Assembly (NCBI GenBank): GCA_964565105.1
Contig: CAZMCG010000001.1
Location: forward strand, 1 to 57,892
Direction of reading: 5' to 3'
From: an uncultured Candidatus Saccharibacteria bacterium
GTDB lineage: Bacteria > Patescibacteriota > Minisyncoccia > UBA6257 > Colwellbacteraceae
DNA: 57,892 nucleotides
Positions within the stretch are counted from its first letter, which is position 1. Each line of letters begins with the position of its first letter. Shown here piece by piece: positions 3,383 to 44,383 of this stretch. The position numbers and the translations under genes were made by a program. The notes beneath the pieces were generated by a model. The model was not told the DNA's origin. It searched no databases and was given only the letters and a program-made list of their open reading frames with translations.

Positions 3383-3475
3383 GAGTCGCAGTCTCTATCT
3401 AAAAAGGTGGATCGGATGTTGAATACGCTAGTTTAAATAAAAAAATTACCTGACAATAGTCAAGCAACTTTTTTA

Positions 3476-4165
3476 GAAGGCAATTCATAAGCCGGATTCT
3501 GTTCCGATTTTGTCCGAAGTAATGAGGATACAAAATCGAGAACCCTTCCATAGCTCGTTAGAGCGACGGAGGGTATCTGCCCCACTTCGCCAAAGGCTTC
3601 GCGGGACGCTCAATTTTGTTACCACTCGTAAACTCGTGAACAAAATTGGCGATAGTAATTTATCTGGGCCTTTGATTACTCGCAGGCTCTGTGCGGCACT
3701 CCTCTCCGCCAAAGGCGGAGGGTACGGCCTTGCACCCAAGTAAGGATTTAGCCGTTTCATCCTGGCCTTATTACCCCTATAGCCAGGTAAAGCCATCAAC
3801 GTTGGGATAGGGCTCCCTACTTCCTTTCGGAACTAGGCGTTACTGTTCGCACCTCTATACTTTCGCACGACGGGTGTTACCTCCTAAATCTTTGCTTACG
3901 CAAAAATCGGACCCGACTTCTGTAAACAGAAGTTTAGGGCGCTACCATTGCCAATGCTCCGCATTGGAATTTCGAAGCTTTAGTTTCTAATTTCAAATAA
4001 GCTTTATCGAAACTCGAATTTCAAAATTCGTCATTCCAGTGCGAAGTACTGGCTGGGTGTCCGGACTTTCCTCTCTGTCTGTAAATTGTGTCTCCGGGTA
4101 TAAAGAACAGTCGCAAACTGCGAACTTGGAGAACAAAAGACAGAGCTACTACCTGAATTACCTCC
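3476..4165 (-). ncRNA. rnpB: RNase P RNA (bacterial type), unusually long at about 690 nt
   Basis: On the minus strand: GAGGAAAGUCCGG (4061-4073), ACAGAAUCCGGCUUAU (3487-3502) and AGUGCCGCACAGAG (3687-3700). P1 pairs GGAGGUAAUUC (4155-4165) with GAAUUGCCUUC (3476-3486). There are many GNRA/UUCG-type hairpins and no credible ORF. Confidence 0.85.
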
Positions 4166-4171
4166 AGCGAT

Positions 4172-4200
4172 TTTATACCACAAGATAAGGACGATTTCAA
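4172..4200 (-). promoter_or_regulatory. Sigma70-like promoter for rnpB
   Basis: On the minus strand: TTGAAA (4195-4200), 17 nt, TATAAA (4172-4177), placed 6 nt upstream of the inferred P1 5' end. Confidence 0.55.
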
Positions 4201-4258
4201 CCTTATGTACTGGTTTTTGTTTATATGTAGCAGAGGTGTCGGAGTTCAGTACTTGCAC

Positions 4259-4390
4259 AAACCAACCAATTTAATAATCACGGGCGTGATTGATGGTGTT
4301 TTGATAAATCCGAAGGGAGAGCTCTATGTTGTGGATTACAAAACAACTTCAAAAAACAACGAGGTGTTTTTAGACGCGGATAAGTCGCAC
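4259..4390 (+). pseudogene. Remnant of a PD-(D/E)XK (RecB/Cas4-like) nuclease, central fragment only
   Basis: The peptide KPTNLIITGVIDGVLINPKGELYVVDYKTTSKNNEVFLDADKSH carries the D...(D/E)xK core. There is no N-terminal part (rnpB promoter lies upstream) and no C-terminal QxxxY part (it runs into the convergent methyltransferase gene). Confidence 0.45.
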
Positions 4391-6790: not shown

Positions 6791-6973
6791 CTACGCGTTA
6801 CGCGTACGGCGCCCAATGGGTTTTCCCTCACCGGGGATGAGCCTAATGGCTTCATCTAGGTATCTCAAGATCCAGTCCGGCGTTAGGGTGGTGTTGCTGA
6901 GCAGGTAGCGGAGTTCGAGGAGGTTGTCCCGCGCCTCCTGAAGATCTCCTTGTGTTATCTGTGTTGTAGTCAT
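6791..6973 (-). CDS. Hypothetical small protein (GC-rich orphan)
   Basis: 60-aa ORF immediately downstream of 7016-7291 on the same strand. GC is visibly higher than in neighbouring genes. The hairpin agagcccg/cgggctct follows it. Confidence 0.5.
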   Translation of the reverse strand: MTTTQITQGDLQEARDNLLELRYLLSNTTLTPDWILRYLDEAIRLIPGEGKPIGRRTRNA

Positions 6974-7015
6974 TTGTCATTCCTTTTCTCGGTGGACTCT
7001 GGGTCAGTGGAACGC

Positions 7016-7291
7016 TTACACTGTAGTTATGGCCCTGATTTCTTCCAGTTCTTTGCGTCCCTCATTGGTGACAAAAAGCTTTAGGGTTACAGGCGCCACC
7101 TTGATGGCGTTGTTATTTATACGGGAGAGTTCAAGTTTAAGAGCGCGCTCACTAAACCACCAGCCATAACTAGAGTTCGCGATGGCCGTATAGAGTTCAC
7201 TTGCTGTGTACTTACCATAGCCAACATGCTCTAGGAGCACTCTGCGAATTTCGCGACGGACACTGTCTGGGGGATAAATTCCAGGGGGCAT
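7016..7291 (-). CDS. Hypothetical small protein (GC-rich orphan)
   Basis: A strong SD (AAGGAGG) lies 5 nt upstream of the ATG at 7291, which starts MPPGIYPPDSVRR. This start is preferred over the longer TTG start at 7339. Confidence 0.6.
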   Translation of the reverse strand: MPPGIYPPDSVRREIRRVLLEHVGYGKYTASELYTAIANSSYGWWFSERALKLELSRINNNAIKVAPVTLKLFVTNEGRKELEEIRAITTV

Positions 7292-7496
7292 ACCTACCTC
7301 CTTGGGGTAATTGTTAGGGTGCGTACGCTTCTTTACCAAAACATACCAGACTTTATGCTAGAGTGGAAGGTAGGGTTGATGAGAAACTCCCCGAATGTAT
7401 ATAATATAAGTTAGTGTTGGGTGGCGCTTTGTTTGCCCGGCTATTATTCGGAGGAAATGCTTATATTCTATTGCGCAATCATTTCATTCCTCATTC

Positions 7497-7567
7497 TGCC
7501 GGGTGGTGTAACGGTAGCACGCTAGGTTTTGATCCTAGAAATCGGGGTTCGATTCCCTGCCCGGCAA
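7497..7567 (+). tRNA. tRNA-Gln (anticodon UUG)
   Basis: Acceptor tgccggg/cccggca, anticodon stem ctagg/cctag with loop ttTTGat, T-arm cgggg-ttcgatt-ccctg. Confidence 0.9.
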
Positions 7568-7610: not shown

Positions 7611-7746
7611 TGGCAGGGAATCGAACGCGAAAGGGGTCGGGAAAACAGCTGTTTTCCTGTGGCGGAGCGCACGAACCGAGGGGTTCGTGAAAGTCCCGAA
7701 CTAGTTGAGGGACGAGTGAGATAGCGAAGCGTCCCTGCCCGGCAAC
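7611..7746 (+). repeat. GC-rich structured element E2
   Basis: Starts with ggcagggaatcgaac (7612-7626), the exact reverse complement of the tRNA T-arm/acceptor at 7547-7561. Contains hairpins ggaaaacagctgttttcc and cacgaacc-gagg-ggttcgtg (7670-7689). Ends in tccctgcccggcaac (7732-7746), identical to the tRNA 3' end at 7554-7568. Confidence 0.65.
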
Positions 7747-8083
7747 ATTCATTCATACTTTCTTTCGAGAAACGACTATTTCTATAGTAAAAGCTACTAG
7801 TCGTATTGCTATACGGAAAATATAAAACTCATTACATTCAAACACTTATATTCTCCTACATCAACGAGTGAGAAAAAATGAAGATATAAATATCTTCATT
7901 TTATCCGAACGAGGAAGATGCAAGAAATTGTTTTACAATTTTGCCACAATACTCCTGTACCTTTATTATACTATCTCCATAAGTCTCTCGATAAGAAAAT
8001 ATTCACTCATATTATTACTAAGTGTTACCCGCCATCTAAAAGATGGCGGGTTCCCGGGATTTGTAGGGAATCGAACGGGAAGG
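7739..8083 (+). repeat. Direct repeat copy 2 (AT-rich module)
   Basis: Aligns with 5301-5556 and carries an extra 87-nt insertion at 7861-7947. Confidence 0.85.
7872..7903. terminator. Bidirectional terminator-like hairpin inside the copy-2-specific insertion
   Basis: aaaaa-atgaagata-taaa-tatcttcat-tttt: a perfect 9-bp stem flanked by an A-run and a T-run. Confidence 0.5.
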
Positions 8084-8317: not shown

Positions 8318-9274
8318 ATGTTTATAGATGATGTAACAATTAGAGTATCCGCTGGTGATGGTGGTCGTGGAAAAGTAGCTTTTAACTCTAACGCCATGAG
8401 TCTTGGTCCAGCAGGTGGTAGTGGTGGCAATGGTGGGAGTGTCTATTTGGAGGGTGGTTCTAACTTAGATTTGTTAAACAATCTGCGCTTCAAAAAAGAG
8501 ATTAAAGCTATTAGTGGACAGGATGGCAAGCCACAATTCCGCGATGGCGCCGGTGCTAGAGATCTGATATTAAAAGTGCCAGTGGGGACTTTGGTTCATA
8601 ATCTTGATACCAACGAGGAGAAAGAGGTTCTAAAAATAGGACAAAAAAATCTCATTGCTAAAGGAGGTTCTGGCGGAAAAGGCAACTTTCTTTTTCGAAG
8701 TTCACGCAATACAAGTCCTCGTCAATTTCAAGAGGGGCTACCTGGAGAAAAATTTACATTTCGTTTCAAATTAAAACTTATTGCGGACGTTGGTTTCATT
8801 GGCTTACCGAATGTAGGAAAATCTAGTTTTCTAAATGAATTGACTAATGCCAAAAGTAGGGTTGCTAATTATCAATTCACTACGCTCGAGCCAAATTTGG
8901 GAGTTTATTACCACTTAATACTTGCTGATATTCCGGGGCTTATTGAGGGGGCGTCTTCGGGGAAAGGACTGGGTATTAAATTCCTTCAGCACATTGAACG
9001 CACTAAAGTCTTGTTTCATTTTGTCTCTGCTGAGTCAATTAACCTAATTAATGATTACAAGACTGTCCGAAGCGAACTTAAAAAATACAATGAAGAATTA
9101 CTCGATAAGCCAGAGTATCTTTTAATTAGTAAGAGTGACTTGGTTGACTCAGTAGATCTGGAGAAAAAACTTAAGTCTTTAAAAAAAGTAAGCAAAAATA
9201 TCTTAGCTATATCCATCTATGATATAGATAGCATTGAAGCTGTTAAGAAAATCCTTAATAGTTTAGAAAAATAG
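8318..9274 (+). CDS. obg: GTPase Obg
   Basis: N-terminal Obg fold MFIDDVTIRVSAGDGGRGKVAFN, G1 motif GLPNVGKSS and G3 motif DIPGLIEGAS. Confidence 0.95.
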   Translation: MFIDDVTIRVSAGDGGRGKVAFNSNAMSLGPAGGSGGNGGSVYLEGGSNLDLLNNLRFKKEIKAISGQDGKPQFRDGAGARDLILKVPVGTLVHNLDTNEEKEVLKIGQKNLIAKGGSGGKGNFLFRSSRNTSPRQFQEGLPGEKFTFRFKLKLIADVGFIGLPNVGKSSFLNELTNAKSRVANYQFTTLEPNLGVYYHLILADIPGLIEGASSGKGLGIKFLQHIERTKVLFHFVSAESINLINDYKTVRSELKKYNEELLDKPEYLLISKSDLVDSVDLEKKLKSLKKVSKNILAISIYDIDSIEAVKKILNSLEK

Positions 9275-12249: not shown

Positions 12250-12324
12250 GGGGTTGAGCACGAGTCGTTGATGGGTAGTCAAATCGTACTAGTACGAGGA
12301 GTGTATGGGTATCGTACGCTTGAG

Positions 12325-12349
12325 GTGGGTTCGATTCCCACTATCTCCA
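12325..12349 (+). ncRNA. Orphan tRNA/tmRNA-like T-arm plus 3' acceptor strand (no cognate 5' half found)
   Basis: gtggg-ttcgatt-cccac followed by tatctcc-a. This closely resembles a tmRNA/tRNA 3' end, but no GGAGAUA/GGGGAUA partner lies within tRNA distance upstream. Confidence 0.4.
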
Positions 12350-12482
12350 GGAACTTGCAATCTAGTCAAGGATTCAGTGATTTTTTGATACTGTTCTTTT
12401 GAATAATCTATGCTCTTGAAGGGAGCTTGTTGTGCCGAAAGTATACTTAATACGAACTAGCCTTGAATTGATAGCGTGGATT

Positions 12483-12555
12483 GAGGAAATTGAAGGCGAC
12501 TTCGAATAACTTGATGGAGGACGAGTGAGATAGCGAAGCGTCCCTGCCCGGCAAC
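12483..12555 (+). repeat. GC-rich element E4 (short form)
   Basis: gaggaaattgaaggcgac resembles the E 5' arm. The block 12519-12555 is identical over 37 nt to 7710-7746 and ends in the tRNA-Gln 3'-end 15-mer. Confidence 0.6.
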
Positions 12556-12905
12556 CACGTAAAATAACAAACCCGCCCTCAAAGGTGAGTTTGTTATCAC
12601 GTGGCGCGGCCACGAAAAGTGATTGGTTCACCTCGTGGCGCGGCTGCGGGGACTGGGATTTTTACTCCATGATAAGCCACGGGATAATTTTACGTGGGTC
12701 GGGTGATGAATTGCACAGCAATTCATTTTACGCGACACTTACAATATGTATTATGTCTCGCCCTTCGTTTCTCTCGGGGCTTGCCAAGTGCAAGTACATT
12801 CGACCAGGCTTTCTTCGACTTGGTTTGATGCTACTCACCACAAGTCGCTCAGGATAAACAGTGCAAGCGCTTTGATTAGCTCATAAAATTTAATATGATT
12901 AGTTT

Positions 12906-13154
12906 ATGTATTTTGTTTATATCATCAGGTGTGAAGATAGCAGTCTTTACACTGGATCAAGCCCCAACCCAAAAGAGAGGTTTAAGAAGCATAAAGCTGG
13001 GACTGGCGGCAAGTACACAAGATCTCATAGACCTGTAAACCTTGTTTATATCGAAAAGCTTAATACTAAAAGCGATGCAATCAAAAGAGAGATGCAAATC
13101 AAGAGATGGCGAAAAGACAAAAAAGAAAGACTTGTAAAGGGAGCAAAGCTGTAG
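12906..13154 (+). CDS. GIY-YIG nuclease-domain protein (stand-alone, UPF0213/YhbQ-like)
   Basis: 82-aa ORF with YFVYIIRC..SLYTGSS, the KERFKKHK..G..KYTR region and a YIEKL...A.KRE..IKRW tail. Confidence 0.85.
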   Translation: MYFVYIIRCEDSSLYTGSSPNPKERFKKHKAGTGGKYTRSHRPVNLVYIEKLNTKSDAIKREMQIKRWRKDKKERLVKGAKL

Positions 13155-13242
13155 AACAGAACGAGCTACATCAAGGGAAAGTGGCATTGAGGAGTGTGGT
13201 ATCCCTATCCGACATATGGTATAATCGGAAATAATAAAATAT

Positions 13243-13347
13243 ATGGCAAAAAACAAACGTCGAAGAGAAAATATCCGCAAAGCCTTTATTATTTTGATAG
13301 CGCTTATGATGGCGTTAACACTTGGTGGCTTCGCCGCTATTTTTTAA
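13243..13347 (+). CDS. Possible 34-aa membrane peptide
   Basis: The sequence MAKNKRRRENIRKAFIILIALMMALTLGGFAAIF has a basic N-terminus and one hydrophobic helix. A TATAAT lies 20 nt upstream. It is below the ORF-track cutoff. Confidence 0.3.
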   Translation: MAKNKRRRENIRKAFIILIALMMALTLGGFAAIF

Positions 13348-13505
13348 AAAGCACTGTAAAGTTGAACGAGCTTTAAGGTAAGTGTTTTTGAAGTGTGTGT
13401 TTTGTTGTTATTATAGAACCCAGTAGAATTATTTTATGATATCCACACACCTACTTTTAAATATAGTCTTTTTTTGACACAGCGCTGTATAATGGCGCAA
13501 TAGCA

Positions 13506-29705: not shown

Positions 29706-29738
29706 AACTCGCTCGTGTATATCTTTCGGAAACAGAAT

Positions 29739-29768
29739 ACTCCGACTCCAGCGGTCGGAGTTTCTTCT
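29739..29768 (+). terminator. Intrinsic terminator after the M23 peptidase gene
   Basis: ctccgac (29740-29746) / gtcggag (29754-29760) followed by tttcttct. Confidence 0.6.
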
Positions 29769-29769
29769 C

Positions 29770-30000
29770 CCTCGGTTTACTACCGAGTACTCAAGGCATT
29801 GAGTACTCGGACCAAGCTAGCAAACCTCCGGGACGTTCCGAGAAAATATACACTCGCTCGCATTGTTTCGGTGGTAGGGAATTCCGTTCTACCTACTACC
29901 ACCGCGAATGAAGAGTAGGAAAGTGCGCTTGCGTGTTCTTTTGCTCTGAGTGATGCGGTGGCAAGTGAGAACACCACTTACTAGTTAGAATACTCGCTCG
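29770..30000 (+). other. GC-rich non-coding segment with stacked hairpins and a thrice-repeated ACTCGCTCG word
   Basis: Hairpins ctcggt/accgag, gagtactcaa (29785-29794) / ttgagtactc (29799-29808) and ggtggtag.../ctaccacc. ACTCGCTCG occurs at 29707, 29852 and 29992. There is no ORF with an RBS. Confidence 0.4.
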
Positions 30001-30041
30001 CTTTGATTTTAGTTTGAATGGTATAATAAGGGAGAAAATTT

Positions 30042-36598: not shown

Positions 36599-37447
36599 AT
36601 GAATTACGTTTTTTTCGGAACACCACACTTCGCAACAATTATTTTGGAAAAAATGATTGATGCGAATATGCCGCCTTCTATACTTATTTGCAATCCGGAC
36701 CGCCCAGCCGGTCGCAAAAAAATTATCACTCCCCCGCCAACAAAGGAGTTGGTAATGCAAAAAAGCCCGGATACAAAAATTTTTCAGCCGGAAAATAAAA
36801 ATGAACTTACGAGCTTAGCAAAAGAGATATTTGAAAACGCAAAAGTTGGTGTTGTCGCGGCTTACGCTCACATACTCCCCTCTCGTGTTATAGATAAAGC
36901 GCTAGGAGGCATCGTCGGCGTTCACCCATCACTTCTGCCTAAGCTTCGTGGGCCATCTCCAATCCAGGGGGCGATTCTCGAAGGTGATACAGAGGGTGGT
37001 ATTACTCTATATCTTTTAGATACCAAGGTAGACCATGGACCTATCATTAGACAAGAGAAGCATAGTATTTCAAAAATTGACACATATCTTACTTTACACG
37101 ACACACTTGCCAACCTTGCTGGAGAGCTTCTTATAAAAACACTACCAAATCTAGACAAACTAGAAGCACAACCACAGAAAGAGTCTGAGGCGACATTTAC
37201 AAAAAAGTTTATAAGTGAAGATGGATACATCTCACCCAAGGATCTAAAAAAAGCACAAAGTGGTCACAAAAAAGTCGCCCAAAAAGTCTTCCGTAAAATC
37301 CGCGCTCTTAACCCAGAACCCGGAGTCTACACAATACAAGACAATGTCCGCACTAAGCTTTTAAAGGCCAGAGTGGATAATGGGAAACTTGTTCTAGAAA
37401 TAGTCCAAAAAGAAGGTGGGCTTCCAGTACTCAGTGTCCCGAGGTAA
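36599..37447 (+). CDS. fmt: Methionyl-tRNA formyltransferase
   Basis: MNYVFFGTPHFA..IL, plus NPDRPAGRKK and HPSLLPKLRGPSPIQ. The start at 36599 is preferred over 36539, whose extra 20 aa come from a low-complexity leader. Confidence 0.9.
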   Translation: MNYVFFGTPHFATIILEKMIDANMPPSILICNPDRPAGRKKIITPPPTKELVMQKSPDTKIFQPENKNELTSLAKEIFENAKVGVVAAYAHILPSRVIDKALGGIVGVHPSLLPKLRGPSPIQGAILEGDTEGGITLYLLDTKVDHGPIIRQEKHSISKIDTYLTLHDTLANLAGELLIKTLPNLDKLEAQPQKESEATFTKKFISEDGYISPKDLKKAQSGHKKVAQKVFRKIRALNPEPGVYTIQDNVRTKLLKARVDNGKLVLEIVQKEGGLPVLSVPR

Positions 37448-37631
37448 CCCTGGAGTATTGGAATAAAAAAGAGAACGCCTCTGGGGGAGAGACGTTCTCA
37501 TATGTTCGCTGAAGAGCAAGCCCCCCAGCGAACGTAAATAATATATACAAGTAATTATTTTTTGTCAATAGCTTGTGCTGGTTCTATTAAACTTATTTAG
37601 AAATATCATACCCGTTAAATAGTATGCACCA

Positions 37632-38644
37632 GGCCTGTTTTAGGCACACACATTTGGCGGGTTTGTTAATTTGTAATCGGCAAGGAATTCATTCGGTGTC
37701 TTGCCACCCAACCCGCAGTGCTCAAGGTTGTTGTACTTAGTATTCCATACCCTCATCTCTTTGCGCAACTGACCCACACTTTTAAACCTGCGATTTAAGA
37801 GTCTTCTGTTGTCTTCCCTGTGACTTCTCTCCACCGTGCCGTTTTGTGATGGCTTTCCAGGATCAATGAGGTAGTGAGTGATATTGTGTTGTGCGCAGAA
37901 CTTGTCCAGTGCGTGTATCTCTTTGACCGTCATATCACTCCTTTTGTTTGTGCCTGTATAGTAGTTGGTGAATGTGGAGTGATTGTCTGTTTTGATGGCG
38001 ACAATTGTATGGGGGAATCTCCTCATCACAATCTTGAGAAACTCAATGGAGTGATATGTGCACTCTTCGTCAAACACCTCTAAGTGACGCCATCTGCTTG
38101 CAGTATCAATAGCGGTGTATTGGTAGTATTTCCTGCCCTGTATGGCTCCGGGAACGTGTTTAACGTCAATTTCAATAAGTTCACCGAGTTTTCTTTCCGC
38201 GCGAAGATATTTGTATTTCACTCTCTTCACTCTGTATTTGCGAACCAACCTCTCTTTTTTGAGTATCTTGCCGACAGTACGCTCATGGATACGAATACCT
38301 TCCTTTTCGAGCCTCCAGTGTATCTTTTTGGCGCATATATCCTCTTTTCCGCGCAAGGCGATAATCTTCTCCTTGATCGCAATTGGCGTCTCAATACGAT
38401 ATCTCTTCGGTTCCGTTGACCTTGGCTCAAGGTTCTTTTCTCCACCTTTCTTGTATGTTGCCACCCAGCGTTCAAGCGTCCTCTTGCCGTACGGACATAC
38501 TTTAGCCGCATCGACTAGCTTTATCTCCTTTTTAACTATGGGGAGTACCCATCTTAGCCTCTCTTCTTTAATTGTTTGTGCCATATATATTGCCATTCTC
38601 CCATTCTAGGGAAAACCGCCATATGTGTGTGCACATTACCGGCC
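37632..38644 (-). mobile_element. IS481-family insertion sequence (about 1.0 kb)
   Basis: Imperfect terminal inverted repeats ggcacacacatttggcgg (37643-37660) and ccgccatatgtgtgtgc (38616-38632), possibly extending to about 28 nt. A single DDE transposase ORF ends inside the left IR. Confidence 0.7.
37640..38596 (-). CDS. IS481-family DDE transposase (HTH + rve integrase core)
   Basis: N-terminal HTH with CPYGKRTLERWV. Catalytic region IEIDVKHV...YQYTAIDTASRW...IKTDNHSTF...PSQNGTVERSH. Confidence 0.9.
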   Translation of the reverse strand: MAIYMAQTIKEERLRWVLPIVKKEIKLVDAAKVCPYGKRTLERWVATYKKGGEKNLEPRSTEPKRYRIETPIAIKEKIIALRGKEDICAKKIHWRLEKEGIRIHERTVGKILKKERLVRKYRVKRVKYKYLRAERKLGELIEIDVKHVPGAIQGRKYYQYTAIDTASRWRHLEVFDEECTYHSIEFLKIVMRRFPHTIVAIKTDNHSTFTNYYTGTNKRSDMTVKEIHALDKFCAQHNITHYLIDPGKPSQNGTVERSHREDNRRLLNRRFKSVGQLRKEMRVWNTKYNNLEHCGLGGKTPNEFLADYKLTNPPNVCA

Positions 38645-38648
38645 CCCA

Positions 38649-38676
38649 TTGACTTTAATATATAAATCTATATAAA
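38649..38676 (+). promoter_or_regulatory. Sigma70-like promoter for the N1 candidate RNA
   Basis: TTGACT (38649-38654), 16 nt, TATAAA (38671-38676). A second TGATAAT lies at 38681-38687. Confidence 0.45.
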
Positions 38677-38684
38677 CTAGTGAT

Positions 38685-39038
38685 AATGGTTGCACAATAG
38701 GTGCAAGGTTCTGATCTTTACAAATTCTCAACGGACGCCCTTCTGTCGATCGACGGTCCACGATTGACGGCGTCCACCTCGGACTGCCCTGACCCTGGTT
38801 CACGAGCTCTACTGTACAACGGGGCTCACCGAATTTGCGCATTCTCGCTTTGCGCAAGTTTCTCCCACTCCCTCCAGGGTCAGAGCAGTCCCTAAAAATC
38901 CAAGATTTCCCTCCCCGTCCATAACGCAGGTAACCCCCACCAGCGTACCTCTCTGATTCCCCTATTAACACAGAGAGTGAGGGCGGGGAGGGAGTCTTCT
39001 CGCACACATCGACGCCACAAGCGTCGATTTCTTTTTTT
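38685..39038 (+). ncRNA. Unclassified GC-rich structured RNA candidate (N1, about 350 nt)
   Basis: Lies between a promoter-like element and a strong intrinsic terminator. Long-range helices: 38781-38798/38874-38891 (17 of 18 bp), 38733-38739/38769-38775 and 38908-38917/38984-38993. No ORF with an RBS. GC is visibly above the flanks. Confidence 0.5.
39008..39038 (+). terminator. Intrinsic terminator ending N1
   Basis: atcgacgc-cacaa-gcgtcgat followed by ttcttttttt. Confidence 0.75.
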
Positions 39039-39116
39039 AAATGTGTTTATTCTACTGCGTCGAACATGCAACGATAAAAAACGGGGGTGTCTTAATTCAT
39101 AATTCCCAATTCCTTC

Positions 39117-39779
39117 CTACGGCCACTTGTGTCGGGCTTTCGGGTAAATCTGGGAAAGTGGGTGTTCTCCACAATCTCTATGGTGCCTCCTTATACAAAT
39201 ATATCTACCGTATAAAACAAGCCTGTGGTTAAAGTCTCCCCAATCTCTCTTTGGAATTATTTTCATCAAATCTTGCTCGATTTTCACAGGATCTTTATTA
39301 TCAGTAAGATCAAGTTTTTGTGATAATCTCGCAACATGTGTATCAACTGCAATTCCTTCTATAACTCCATATGCATTTCTCAAAACAATATTCGCGGTCT
39401 TTCTTGCAACGCCAGGTAGTGTAAGTATCTCATCCATAGTTTTTGGAACCTCTCCCCCATAGTCTTCTTTTATTTTTTTTGTAGCACCTAAGATATTTTT
39501 TGTTTTACTCCTGAAAAAACCACTCTGGTGAATGTCTTTTTCAAACTCAACTGGCCTTGCATTAACATAGTCATCAAGTGTTTTGTATTTTTTGAAGAGC
39601 TCACCTGTTATCTCATTTACCTTCTTATCGGTCGCTTGCGCGGATAAAATTACGGCTATCAAAAGTTGTAGCGGATTTTTATATTTTAGCTCAATTTCTG
39701 CGTCGGGGAAAAGTTTTTTAAGTTTCTTATTAATTTTTTTAGCGCGCGCCCTTCGTTCCTCAAGTTTCCTATTCGTCAT
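39117..39779 (-). CDS. nth: Endonuclease III (HhH-GPD DNA glycosylase)
   Basis: Contains LIAVILSAQATDKKVN, LPGVARKTANIVL and VDTHV.R. Only two Cys remain in the C-terminal Fe-S region. Confidence 0.9.
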   Translation of the reverse strand: MTNRKLEERRARAKKINKKLKKLFPDAEIELKYKNPLQLLIAVILSAQATDKKVNEITGELFKKYKTLDDYVNARPVEFEKDIHQSGFFRSKTKNILGATKKIKEDYGGEVPKTMDEILTLPGVARKTANIVLRNAYGVIEGIAVDTHVARLSQKLDLTDNKDPVKIEQDLMKIIPKRDWGDFNHRLVLYGRYICIRRHHRDCGEHPLSQIYPKARHKWP

Positions 39780-43292: not shown

Positions 43293-43709
43293 TTAGCCAA
43301 CCGTGACTGTAACTTCGTCCGTCGCTCTTTTTGCGTGAAAAACAAGTTCAGGATCCTCAAGCTCCTGATGGCGGAGCTCTCTGTACCGGTGGCTCAGAGC
43401 CTCCGGTAACACGTGCTCCTCGAGAAACCTCGCAAGCAACGCTTCCCTCTCCACGTGACTACGGGAGAATGTCCTCATCAGAGGAACAACGACGTTCGCC
43501 AGAAAGTCGTGTGTACTCGCAGAAATCCACGGAGCAGAGGGGGTTACAACGAAGCATATAATCTCCGCGGAGAGCGCCTTGAAGAATTCACGATCCCCTC
43601 CCATAGCCAACTCATCAGCTGCGCCCCACGCTTCACGCATGAGTCCTTCTAGAAACCGCTGACGCTGGCTCTCTCTTATCTGCCACGCGGGGCCTGTTAT
43701 TTCAGACAT
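43293..43709 (-). CDS. Hypothetical protein (GC-rich orphan cassette)
   Basis: 138-aa ORF with AGGAGG 6 nt upstream of the ATG. It has its own promoter and terminator. GC is clearly above the flanking cysS and rplU. Confidence 0.7.
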   Translation of the reverse strand: MSEITGPAWQIRESQRQRFLEGLMREAWGAADELAMGGDREFFKALSAEIICFVVTPSAPWISASTHDFLANVVVPLMRTFSRSHVEREALLARFLEEHVLPEALSHRYRELRHQELEDPELVFHAKRATDEVTVTVG

Positions 43710-43917: not shown

Positions 43918-43977
43918 TCTTGCACGCTCGGCGGATCAAGGGTGAAAACTAGTAACTTATCAGCTACTAATCTTTAC

Positions 43978-44083
43978 CCATTCGATTTTACTCAGGACGA
44001 GAATTGGAACTAATTACTATTTATATTTGTCCATTCGATTTTACTCAGGACGAGAATTGGAACTAATTACTATTTATATTTGT
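43978..44083. repeat. Perfect 53-bp tandem duplication covering the 3' end of rplU
   Basis: 43978-44030 is identical to 44031-44083. The second copy contains the last 6 codons plus the TAG of rplU. Confidence 0.9.
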
Positions 44084-44383
44084 TATCTCAACCTCGGTAA
44101 AGGGTTGTCTGTGTCCCTTCTTTTTTCTATACCTAGTCTTAGGGTGATAACGAAATACAATCACCTTATCAGACCTCCCCTGTTGCAAAACCTTTGCCTC
44201 AACTTTTACTCCTTTTAAATATGGATAACCTATCTCAATATCATCGTTATTATTAGACAAAAGAACCCTGTCAAATAAGAAACTATCCCCCTCTTCGGTG
44301 TTGAGCTTCTCCACTTTTATCTTATCACCCACAAAAACCCTATACTGTTTACTACCCGTTTCTATAACTGCAAATTTACTCAT
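44063..44383 (-). CDS. rplU: 50S ribosomal protein L21
   Basis: MSKFAVIETGSKQYRV..GD.I.VEKL and KV.VFRY..K..YRKK.GHRQ..TEV.I. Confidence 0.95.
   Translation of the reverse strand: MSKFAVIETGSKQYRVFVGDKIKVEKLNTEEGDSFLFDRVLLSNNNDDIEIGYPYLKGVKVEAKVLQQGRSDKVIVFRYHPKTRYRKKKGHRQPFTEVEITNINSN

Follow-up and report, generated by a model that had tools for sequence, protein, structure and literature searches.

A GC-rich, highly structured candidate RNA (~355 nt) in the fmt-nth interval of a Patescibacterial genome

What is the GC-rich DNA that lies between an insertion sequence (IS) and the convergent nth gene on contig CAZMCG010000001.1 of assembly GCA_964565105.1, which belongs to the Candidate Phyla Radiation (CPR, Patescibacteria): a stand-alone RNA gene, a leader, the remains of a gene, or a feature of the DNA itself? 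We analysed the whole 58-kb stretch of that contig (57,892 nt, hereafter the window). From the sequence alone, the original prediction had placed a GC-rich RNA of about 350 nt, with long-range helices and no recognisable family, between a promoter and a terminator at positions 38649-39038 of the plus strand (the candidate RNA region). The analysis confirms the original observation and, within the reach of sequence data, supports its reading. The region lies between a promoter and a terminator, has an exceptional fold and lacks coding capacity; where it lies and how it is built are conserved, although its sequence turns over. It is probably a real stand-alone RNA gene, and we infer that it acts as a plus-strand RNA. 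The candidate is best filed as a new lineage-restricted non-coding RNA (ncRNA) of a general kind, the stand-alone structured or regulatory RNA of bacteria; its architecture is unusual.

A promoter-to-terminator unit with an exceptional fold

The minimum free energy (MFE) of the candidate is -149.7 kcal/mol, compared with -98.1 ± 5.2 kcal/mol for dinucleotide shuffles (z = -10.0). When foldedness was scanned over the window in 115 tiles of 350 nt, the tile of the candidate was the most extreme (z = -11.4, with a background mean of -1.3 and a standard deviation of 2.3), and the RNase P RNA tile came behind it (z = -8.1). The GC content of the candidate (0.54) is well above that of its surroundings, as had been proposed, the mean of the window being 0.405 (standard deviation 0.049, 350-nt windows).

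The MFE fold consists, in order, of a small 5' hairpin, a single-stranded leader, three independent domains (B, C and D) and the terminator (Table 1). The 7-bp helix of domain B (GGACGCC at 38733-38739 with GGCGTCC at 38769-38775) encloses the palindrome GTCGATCGAC, in the sequence as well as in the fold, and the 18-bp helix of domain C was recovered by a repeat finder (38781-38798 with 38874-38891; 94% complementary, the sole mismatch being C.A); both agree with the original prediction. The helix of domain D had been placed correctly, at 38908-38917 and 38984-38993, but its length had been underestimated at 10 bp, given that the arms found by the repeat finder (38908-38920 and 38981-38993) comprise 13 nt at 92%. 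The predicted local hairpins ttgcgc/gcgcaa and ctctctg/cagagag are all part of the MFE fold. Stretches resembling CUUUxCA(A/G) precede the first large helix in several relatives, and their resemblance to the leader of the window RNA is statistically non-significant.

The limits of the unit are those read from the sequence at the outset: the TTGACT-16-TATAAA promoter is present at 38649-38676, and a terminator scan found the terminator with its 8-bp stem and T-run. A promoter scan offered an alternative reading with the same -35 box, an 18-nt spacer and TAAACT at 38673-38678 as the -10 box.

The region had also been described as lacking any ORF (open reading frame) with a ribosome-binding site, and the absence of ORFs needs qualification: two ORFs starting with GTG overlap the candidate, one of 123 aa on the minus strand and one of 64 aa on the plus strand. 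Neither contains a Pfam domain, a search of 5.8 billion proteins with the 123-aa ORF matched only itself, and the one ATG in the whole candidate RNA is followed by a stop four codons later; judged from the sequence, the candidate has no credible coding potential, and that part of the description holds. A six-frame tblastn search of the candidate against the loci of relatives returned nothing, so that it does not descend by decay from a neighbouring gene. The gene remnant is rejected by this result (the original prediction had named a decayed GC-rich gene fragment as the reading that would count against a functional RNA), and relatives keep analogous RNAs at the orthologous position (see below).

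Rfam 15 was scanned in gathering and E-value modes with the candidate region and with the whole window. No family reached its gathering score in the candidate, and the best matches (E = 2.7-9.6; Pab91, NEAT1 and mir-483) are all chance matches to eukaryotic or archaeal families, in line with the predicted lack of a recognisable family. Covariance models of 6S and Ms1 RNA gave no match to the candidate at E ≤ 10. ARAGORN reported no tRNA or tmRNA in the candidate, its only calls being two tRNA-Gln elsewhere; the RNase P RNA (3473-4164, minus strand, E = 2.9 × 10−9) and a tmRNA match (from 12250, E = 0.007) both lie away from the candidate, each being expected once per genome, and the earlier exclusion of these two families thus stands. 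The candidate has no second copy within the window, distant-mode blastn of phage and plasmid collections gave no match to it, and exact 18-24-mers of the candidate had 0 matches in viral contigs.

Conserved position and architecture despite sequence turnover

To place the locus among relatives we used Nth and Fmt as synteny anchors, with a small-RNA pattern and HSP20 as further anchors. Searches with Nth and Fmt indicate an affinity of the window near the Colwellbacteria, Wolfebacteria and Wildermuthbacteria groups of Patescibacteria, the nearest relatives, all metagenome assemblies, showing 79% identity in Nth and 59% in Fmt. Two of the related CPR contigs (numbered with the prefix L), L004 and L005, keep the locus at 57-59% identity in Fmt. 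Synteny with the window extends upstream through def-fmt, and fmt is followed by HSP20 (minus strand), a small RNA, a divergent promoter pair (TTGTCAA...TTGACAA) and, on the plus strand, a GC-rich RNA of multiple hairpins with its terminator.

The small RNA of about 70 nt, which has no match in Rfam, ties the window to these two loci. In the window it lies downstream of def-fmt and to the left of the IS, divergent from the candidate, and its homologues are found at L004:11997-12068 and L005:11464-11535, where an HSP20 gene with its own promoter lies just downstream. All 25 of its pairs are paired in 3/3 sequences, six of them with compensatory double changes, a result that 0/500 shuffles reach, and its G.U pairs are confined to its sense strand. 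By sequence, the small RNA is clearly orthologous in the window, L004 and L005. Since each of the two relatives has a GC-rich RNA divergent from this orthologous small RNA, the candidate is in the orthologous position and orientation, and it has the architecture of L004A and L005A (suffix A denotes the RNA beside the small RNA): divergent orientation, a TTGAC[AT] box at the edge, a terminator and multiple hairpins.

The spacer between the two divergent ncRNA promoters differs in one respect. In the window it contains an IS481-like element, single-copy in the 58 kb, that carries an rve transposase (37640-38596, minus strand, 318 aa; an rve/IS481-type DDE enzyme), and no such element is present in the orthologous spacer of L004 or L005; judged by this comparison, the IS simply landed between the two divergent promoters. 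The right inverted repeat ends 4 nt before the -35 box of the candidate, and because the candidate starts outside this repeat it is not part of the IS. A guide RNA associated with the IS (of the bridge or omega type) was rejected for the same reason, and also because relatives have such RNAs without an IS. To the right of the candidate follow nth, recR and dnaB, all convergent to it. As the original prediction had argued, the candidate is not a leader in the window genome, because the next gene, nth, is convergent.

In L004 and L005 the gene downstream of the RNA has a promoter-like sequence past the RNA terminator, which argues that the RNA is not simply a leader there either. L004A and L005A have a 3' module in common, in which all 23 pairs are paired in both sequences, with three double changes; each of the four single changes creates a G.U pair when read on the sense strand, and this argues for selection on a plus-strand RNA in these two relatives. 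The nth loci of relatives, located by Nth synteny, contain no homologue of the candidate, and the locus is absent from L006-L008, three further relatives found with Fmt. Between fmt and nth the relatives have a redox-stress island of 6-10 kb (L004:10846-20501 and L005:10846-17492) with genes for HSP20, DUF5654, MarR/ArsR, glutaredoxin, DUF3179, AhpC, a G6PD-6PGD fusion, PTP, acylphosphatase and PBP. The fmt-nth site of the window (37447-39117) is without this island and holds only the small RNA, the IS and the candidate RNA.

Two RNA loci bracket the redox-stress island in the relatives, the second (suffix B) lying downstream of G6PD. All six B RNAs have a TTGAC[AT] box, are GC-rich, contain several perfect helices of 14-24 bp and end in a terminator; the -10 box (TAGAGT or TAGATT) is recognisable in L011-L013 and weak in L001-L003, and in L011-L013 the B RNA lies between co-directional genes. 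The possibility that A and B RNAs are direct repeats around an excisable island was rejected, there being no A-B similarity within a genome. With the B RNAs the set for comparison comprises nine RNAs: the window RNA, L004A, L005A, L001B, L002B, L003B, L011B, L012B and L013B. The TTGAC[AT] box is at the 5' edge in 9/9, C exceeds G on the inferred sense strand in 9/9, and the sense-strand fold z-scores range from -6.4 to -10.2 and are more extreme than those of the antisense strand in 8/9.

Sequence similarity, by comparison, is restricted to subsets. Pairwise z-scores are 6.6 for L004A and L005A, 7.6 for L001B and L011B and 3.7 for L002B and L003B, and those of the window RNA with L001B, L002B, L003B and L011B range from -0.6 to 1.2. 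L001B, L011B and L012B have the blocks GAAGCUxGGAGG, CUUGGGA and GGUUCUCCACGAAC in common, with some compensatory pairs; an alignment of all nine RNAs, L012B and L013B among them, shows none of these blocks in the window RNA. The small-RNA anchor pattern had 0 matches in genome contigs and 0 in viral contigs, and one match in a metagenome contig was rejected as chance (a generic terminator in a high-GC contig). A scan of genome contigs anchored on HSP20 was discarded as uninformative, yielding only distant HSP20s of other phyla.

Table 1. Coordinates of the candidate RNA, its neighbours and the RNAs compared; positions without a contig prefix in the first twelve rows refer to the window, those of B RNAs to the contig named
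Feature	Position	Strand	Basis or detail
-35 box TTGACT	38649-38654	+	sequence reading and promoter scan
-10 box TATAAA, 16-nt spacer	38671-38676	+	sequence reading
Predicted transcript, ~355 nt	38684-39038	+	start ~7 nt past the -10 box (inferred); end at the T-run
5' hairpin UUGCAC-AAUAG-GUGCAA	38690-38706	+	MFE fold
A/U-rich leader, mostly single-stranded (…UUCUGAUCUUUACAAAUUCUCAAC)	38707-38732	+	MFE fold
Domain B: 7-bp GGACGCC/GGCGUCC helix around an 8-bp hairpin on palindrome GUCGAUCGAC	38733-38775	+	
Domain C: 18-bp closing helix; inside, two hairpins and C-rich internal loop UCCCACUCCCU	38781-38891	+	repeat finder and MFE fold
Domain D: closing helix of at least 13 bp, UCCCUCCCCGUCC/GGGCGGGGAGGGA; inside, two hairpins with C-rich loops AACCCCC and AUUCCCCUAUUAACA	38902-38999	+	
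Intrinsic terminator: ATCGACGC-CACAA-GCGTCGAT at 39008-39028 (8-bp stem, 5-nt loop), then T-run TTCTTTTTTT	39008-39038	+	
IS481-like element	37632-38644	-	33-nt imperfect inverted repeats, 37632-64 and 38612-44, starting GGCC
Small RNA promoter TTGACA-17-TATATT	37568-37540	-	11/12 consensus positions; same spacing in L004 and L005
Conserved small RNA, ~70 nt	37465-37535	-	13-bp hairpin with CUUG loop, terminator hairpin with C5 loop, U-run
GC-rich multi-hairpin RNA L004A	L004:12173-12721	+	549 nt from the -35 box
GC-rich multi-hairpin RNA L005A	L005:11713-12007	+	295 nt from the -35 box
L001B	7079-7446	-	downstream of G6PD(-PTP) operon
L002B	6897-7258	-	downstream of G6PD(-PTP) operon
L003B	7642-8041	-	downstream of G6PD(-PTP) operon
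L011B	8489-8917	-	downstream of G6PD(-PTP) operon
L012B	3935-4318	-	downstream of G6PD(-PTP) operon
L013B	3751-4088	-	downstream of G6PD(-PTP) operon

Proposed mechanism and rival explanations

In the nine RNAs the single-stranded positions are strongly depleted of G: 11% of the G residues are unpaired, compared with 39% of the C residues. Hairpin loops are mostly free of G and many contain runs of C, those of the window RNA including AACCCCC and AUUCCCCUAUUAACA in addition to the internal loop UCCCACUCCCU; CTCC (z = 3.6) and TCCC (z = 3.0) are enriched over dinucleotide shuffles, and the adjoining small RNA keeps a loop of C5-6. We propose that, in one Paceibacteria-like CPR lineage, a sigma-70-type promoter would drive an RNA of about 355 nt that is ended by an intrinsic terminator and would fold into three independent GC-rich domains of long, near-perfect helices with short A/U-rich linkers. 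The candidate would be the positional counterpart of the multi-hairpin RNAs of 297-551 nt that are divergent from the orthologous 70-nt small RNA in L004 and L005, and the members of this set would keep position, promoter, terminator, GC-richness and an extreme fold, with sequences and whole hairpin domains turning over fast. The stable helices would serve as a scaffold on which single-stranded loops, rich in C and free of G, are exposed, and the RNA would act in trans by pairing with G-rich sites, for example the ribosome-binding regions of mRNAs, as in RNAIII and the Rsa-type RNAs of S. aureus, or, alternatively, through titration of a factor with affinity for C-rich RNA.

Several observations, however, weigh against this explanation. 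Searches with nhmmer and blastn, the tools suggested in the original prediction, were run against the loci of relatives and found no homologue of the candidate, the analogues that do exist being positional and located through Fmt synteny. Profile hidden Markov models of the 5' and 3' ends of the relatives' RNAs do not single out the candidate in the window, and a covariance model of the L004A/L005A 3' module has no match in the window at E ≤ 10. The best local alignment, of positions 38731-38790 with the L004A module, has z = 3.5 and is structurally inconsistent, aligning a 5' arm with a 3' arm. Compared as sequences, the RNAs of the relatives are too different from the window RNA for a proof of shared ancestry or a clue to function. 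The promoter by itself is weak evidence, as the scan of 2.5 kb returned 10 promoter-like sites when 4.5 were expected. The IS, 4 nt from the -35 box, may alter expression.

The strand and the loops are subject to similar reservations. The reverse strand has an MFE of -144.2 kcal/mol (z = -4.4), close in absolute energy to the sense strand, and it folds nearly as well because the helices are almost all Watson-Crick. The assignment of the strand consequently rests on the promoter and terminator, and a plus-strand function at the level of RNA rather than DNA is suggested by these two signals and by analogy. As to the loops, an unbiased 8-mer search found C-rich motifs in 9/9 RNAs, which shuffled sets equalled in 7/40, so that a common motif beyond composition across the nine RNAs is not significant. 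GGAG, GAGG or AGGA occurs upstream of only 8/54 crude gene starts in the window, and none of the 54 window initiation regions pairs better with the loops than with shuffled loops, the best loop-target duplex having -16.5 kcal/mol vs. a shuffled-loop mean of -16.9 kcal/mol (54 window genes only). The candidate also has no complementarity to the neighbouring small RNA. An action in trans through the C-rich loops is the mechanism that we favour, but it is doubtful. To the full explanation, a stand-alone, lineage-specific RNA gene together with the loop mechanism, we assign a rough probability of 0.45 as a compromise figure.

Among the alternatives, a protein sponge or scaffold in the manner of CsrB, RsmZ and CrcZ, with an RNA-binding protein titrated or assembled by a modular row of stable stem-loops, is unlikely. 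Such a role would account for the gain and loss of domains, the drift of the sequences and the two loci per genome in the relatives, and it fits the modular architecture (2-4 domains, 297-551 nt), the limitation of what L004A and L005A have in common to the 3' module, the second locus of the same architecture, the strong promoter and terminator on each RNA and the G-free loops. Against it, the loop sequences are heterogeneous, with nothing recurring beyond general C-richness, known sponge RNAs have far shorter and less perfect helices, and no candidate partner protein is encoded nearby. We would give similarly little credence to an undescribed CPR class of 'hairpin cassettes'. These would be strongly promoted, GC-rich RNAs of 300-550 nt that consist of interchangeable long perfect helices with G-free loops, occupy fixed positions (one beside the 70-nt small RNA, the other where the redox-stress island ends on its far side) and undergo near-complete sequence turnover between genera, with a novel mode of action, for instance as a decoy for a factor that binds double-stranded or C-rich RNA (RNase III, Rho or a KH protein).

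Because the helices are Watson-Crick on both strands, a role of the window copy at the level of DNA or in cis keeps some probability, albeit a low one. The block of GC-rich perfect palindromes could be a barrier to transcription or replication that separates convergent and divergent units, a hotspot of recombination or integration, or a leader orphaned by the loss of the redox island, its transcript having no function in trans. The nearly pure Watson-Crick helices, which let both strands fold about equally, speak for such an element, and several properties of the locus are compatible with it: the relatives' RNA loci bracket the very island that the window lacks in its fmt-nth interval, an IS has inserted into this spacer, and no obvious terminator belongs to the convergent nth gene itself. 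A feature of the DNA does not, however, readily account for conserved, correctly spaced promoters and a terminator on one strand at nine loci, for the single changes in the L004/L005 module that are all G.U on the sense strand, or for the promoter-like sequence of the downstream gene past the RNA terminator in L004 and L005, and the genes on either side of the B RNA in L011-L013 are co-directional, not convergent.

It is improbable that the region has no function, that is, that it is a GC-rich fragment that is decaying or was acquired recently, or a set of hairpins accreted by mutation (e.g., template switching) between chance promoter- and terminator-like sequences. None of the collections searched contains a homologue, promoter-like hexamers are common in this AT-rich DNA, and the region adjoins a mobile element, all of which speak for this reading; yet the region has the most extreme fold of the window, maintains 54% GC in a 40% GC genome, lacks protein similarity and has orthologously placed counterparts of the same architecture in relatives, even though the identity in Fmt is only 57-59%. 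Finally, an arrangement like type I toxin-antitoxin systems, in which the candidate would be a toxin mRNA or would otherwise be targeted by the divergent small RNA (tisB/istR and zorO/orzO are examples), is suggested by the juxtaposition of a divergent RNA of about 70 nt and a highly structured one of about 350 nt, but is effectively refuted by the lack of a small hydrophobic ORF (the single ATG is followed by a stop after 4 codons) and by duplex energies of the small and large RNAs that are no better than those of shuffles in all three genomes (z = 0.8, -0.3 and -2.1).

Other sites in the window, known systems and significance

Several other sites in the window are structured or otherwise unusual. 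The second most structured tile (29706-30010, plus strand; z = -10.4 in the tile scan and -5.7 for the exact region) is intergenic and contains three copies of ACTCGCTCG about 143 nt apart (29708, 29851 and 29994) and several perfect hairpins; it is possibly another unannotated RNA or a repeat array. The RNase P RNA scores 40.6 bits vs. a gathering score of 100 and spans 692 nt vs. the 367 positions of the model; it is a CPR form with large insertions, missed by standard thresholds. The tmRNA match is partial (12250-12352, plus strand) and opens a gene-poor gap of 1.25 kb (12250-13500), for which ARAGORN made no tmRNA call; this tmRNA may be unusual or interrupted. The T-arm of tRNA-Gln(ttg) recurs 50 nt downstream of the tRNA as a perfect inverted copy of 15 nt (7547-7561 and 7612-7626), which may be an integration scar. 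A direct tandem duplication of about 54 nt (…caaatataaatagtaattagttccaattctcgtcctgagtaaaatcgaatgg… in the minus-strand reading) lies at about 43975-44085, upstream of a GC-rich gene (43293-43709, minus strand).

Comparison of the candidate to known systems yields partial likenesses. GC-rich intergenic regions led to large ncRNAs such as OLE, ROOL, GOLLD and raiA (Stav et al. 2019, PMC6429828), and the candidate was recognised in the same way, as a long GC-rich stretch without genes between the genes of an AT-rich genome; unlike these ncRNAs, it has no covariance-model match, a far narrower distribution and much less sequence conservation. In S. aureus, RNAIII and the Rsa-class small RNAs pair with ribosome-binding sites through UCCC or C-rich loops (Geissmann et al. 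2009, PMC2790875), as does LhrC of Listeria, another small RNA with C-rich loops (PMC4132741). The candidate resembles these RNAs as a stand-alone promoter-to-terminator RNA of a low-GC host, with stable hairpins, C-rich and G-free loops and enriched CTCC and TCCC. It differs from them in having no relation by sequence or in Rfam, in helices that are much longer and GC-richer, in a motif enrichment that stays within composition in the unbiased test, and in the lack of a target site and the small number of Shine-Dalgarno-like motifs in the window.

With CsrB/CsrC, RsmX/Y/Z and CrcZ the candidate and its counterparts have in common strings of stem-loops in variable number, poor sequence conservation, more than one locus per genome and a strong promoter and terminator; the candidate has no repeated GGA or CA-type loop motif and no evident partner protein. 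The 6S and mycobacterial Ms1 RNAs are likewise structured stand-alone RNAs (180-300 nt) that diverge beyond recognition between phyla, but they form one rod with a central bubble, in contrast to the three separate branched domains of the candidate. REP/BIME and MITE-like palindromic repeats resemble it as clustered, near-perfect, GC-rich palindromes in an intergenic position beside an IS. The candidate differs from such repeats in being single-copy in 58 kb and in having its own promoter and terminator, and no hairpins are common to two loci of the same relative.

CPR genomes are tiny and, to our knowledge, almost no regulatory RNAs have been described from them. Although the present result is a well-supported candidate and not the discovery of a new mechanism, it would, if true, be among the first candidate regulatory RNA systems specific to the CPR radiation, and the case for a regulatory RNA is stronger because the candidate is paired with a conserved small RNA and has counterparts of similar build in relatives. 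It would also illustrate clearly how an RNA can keep its architecture and position but not its sequence; homology tools of the Rfam type miss such RNAs by design.

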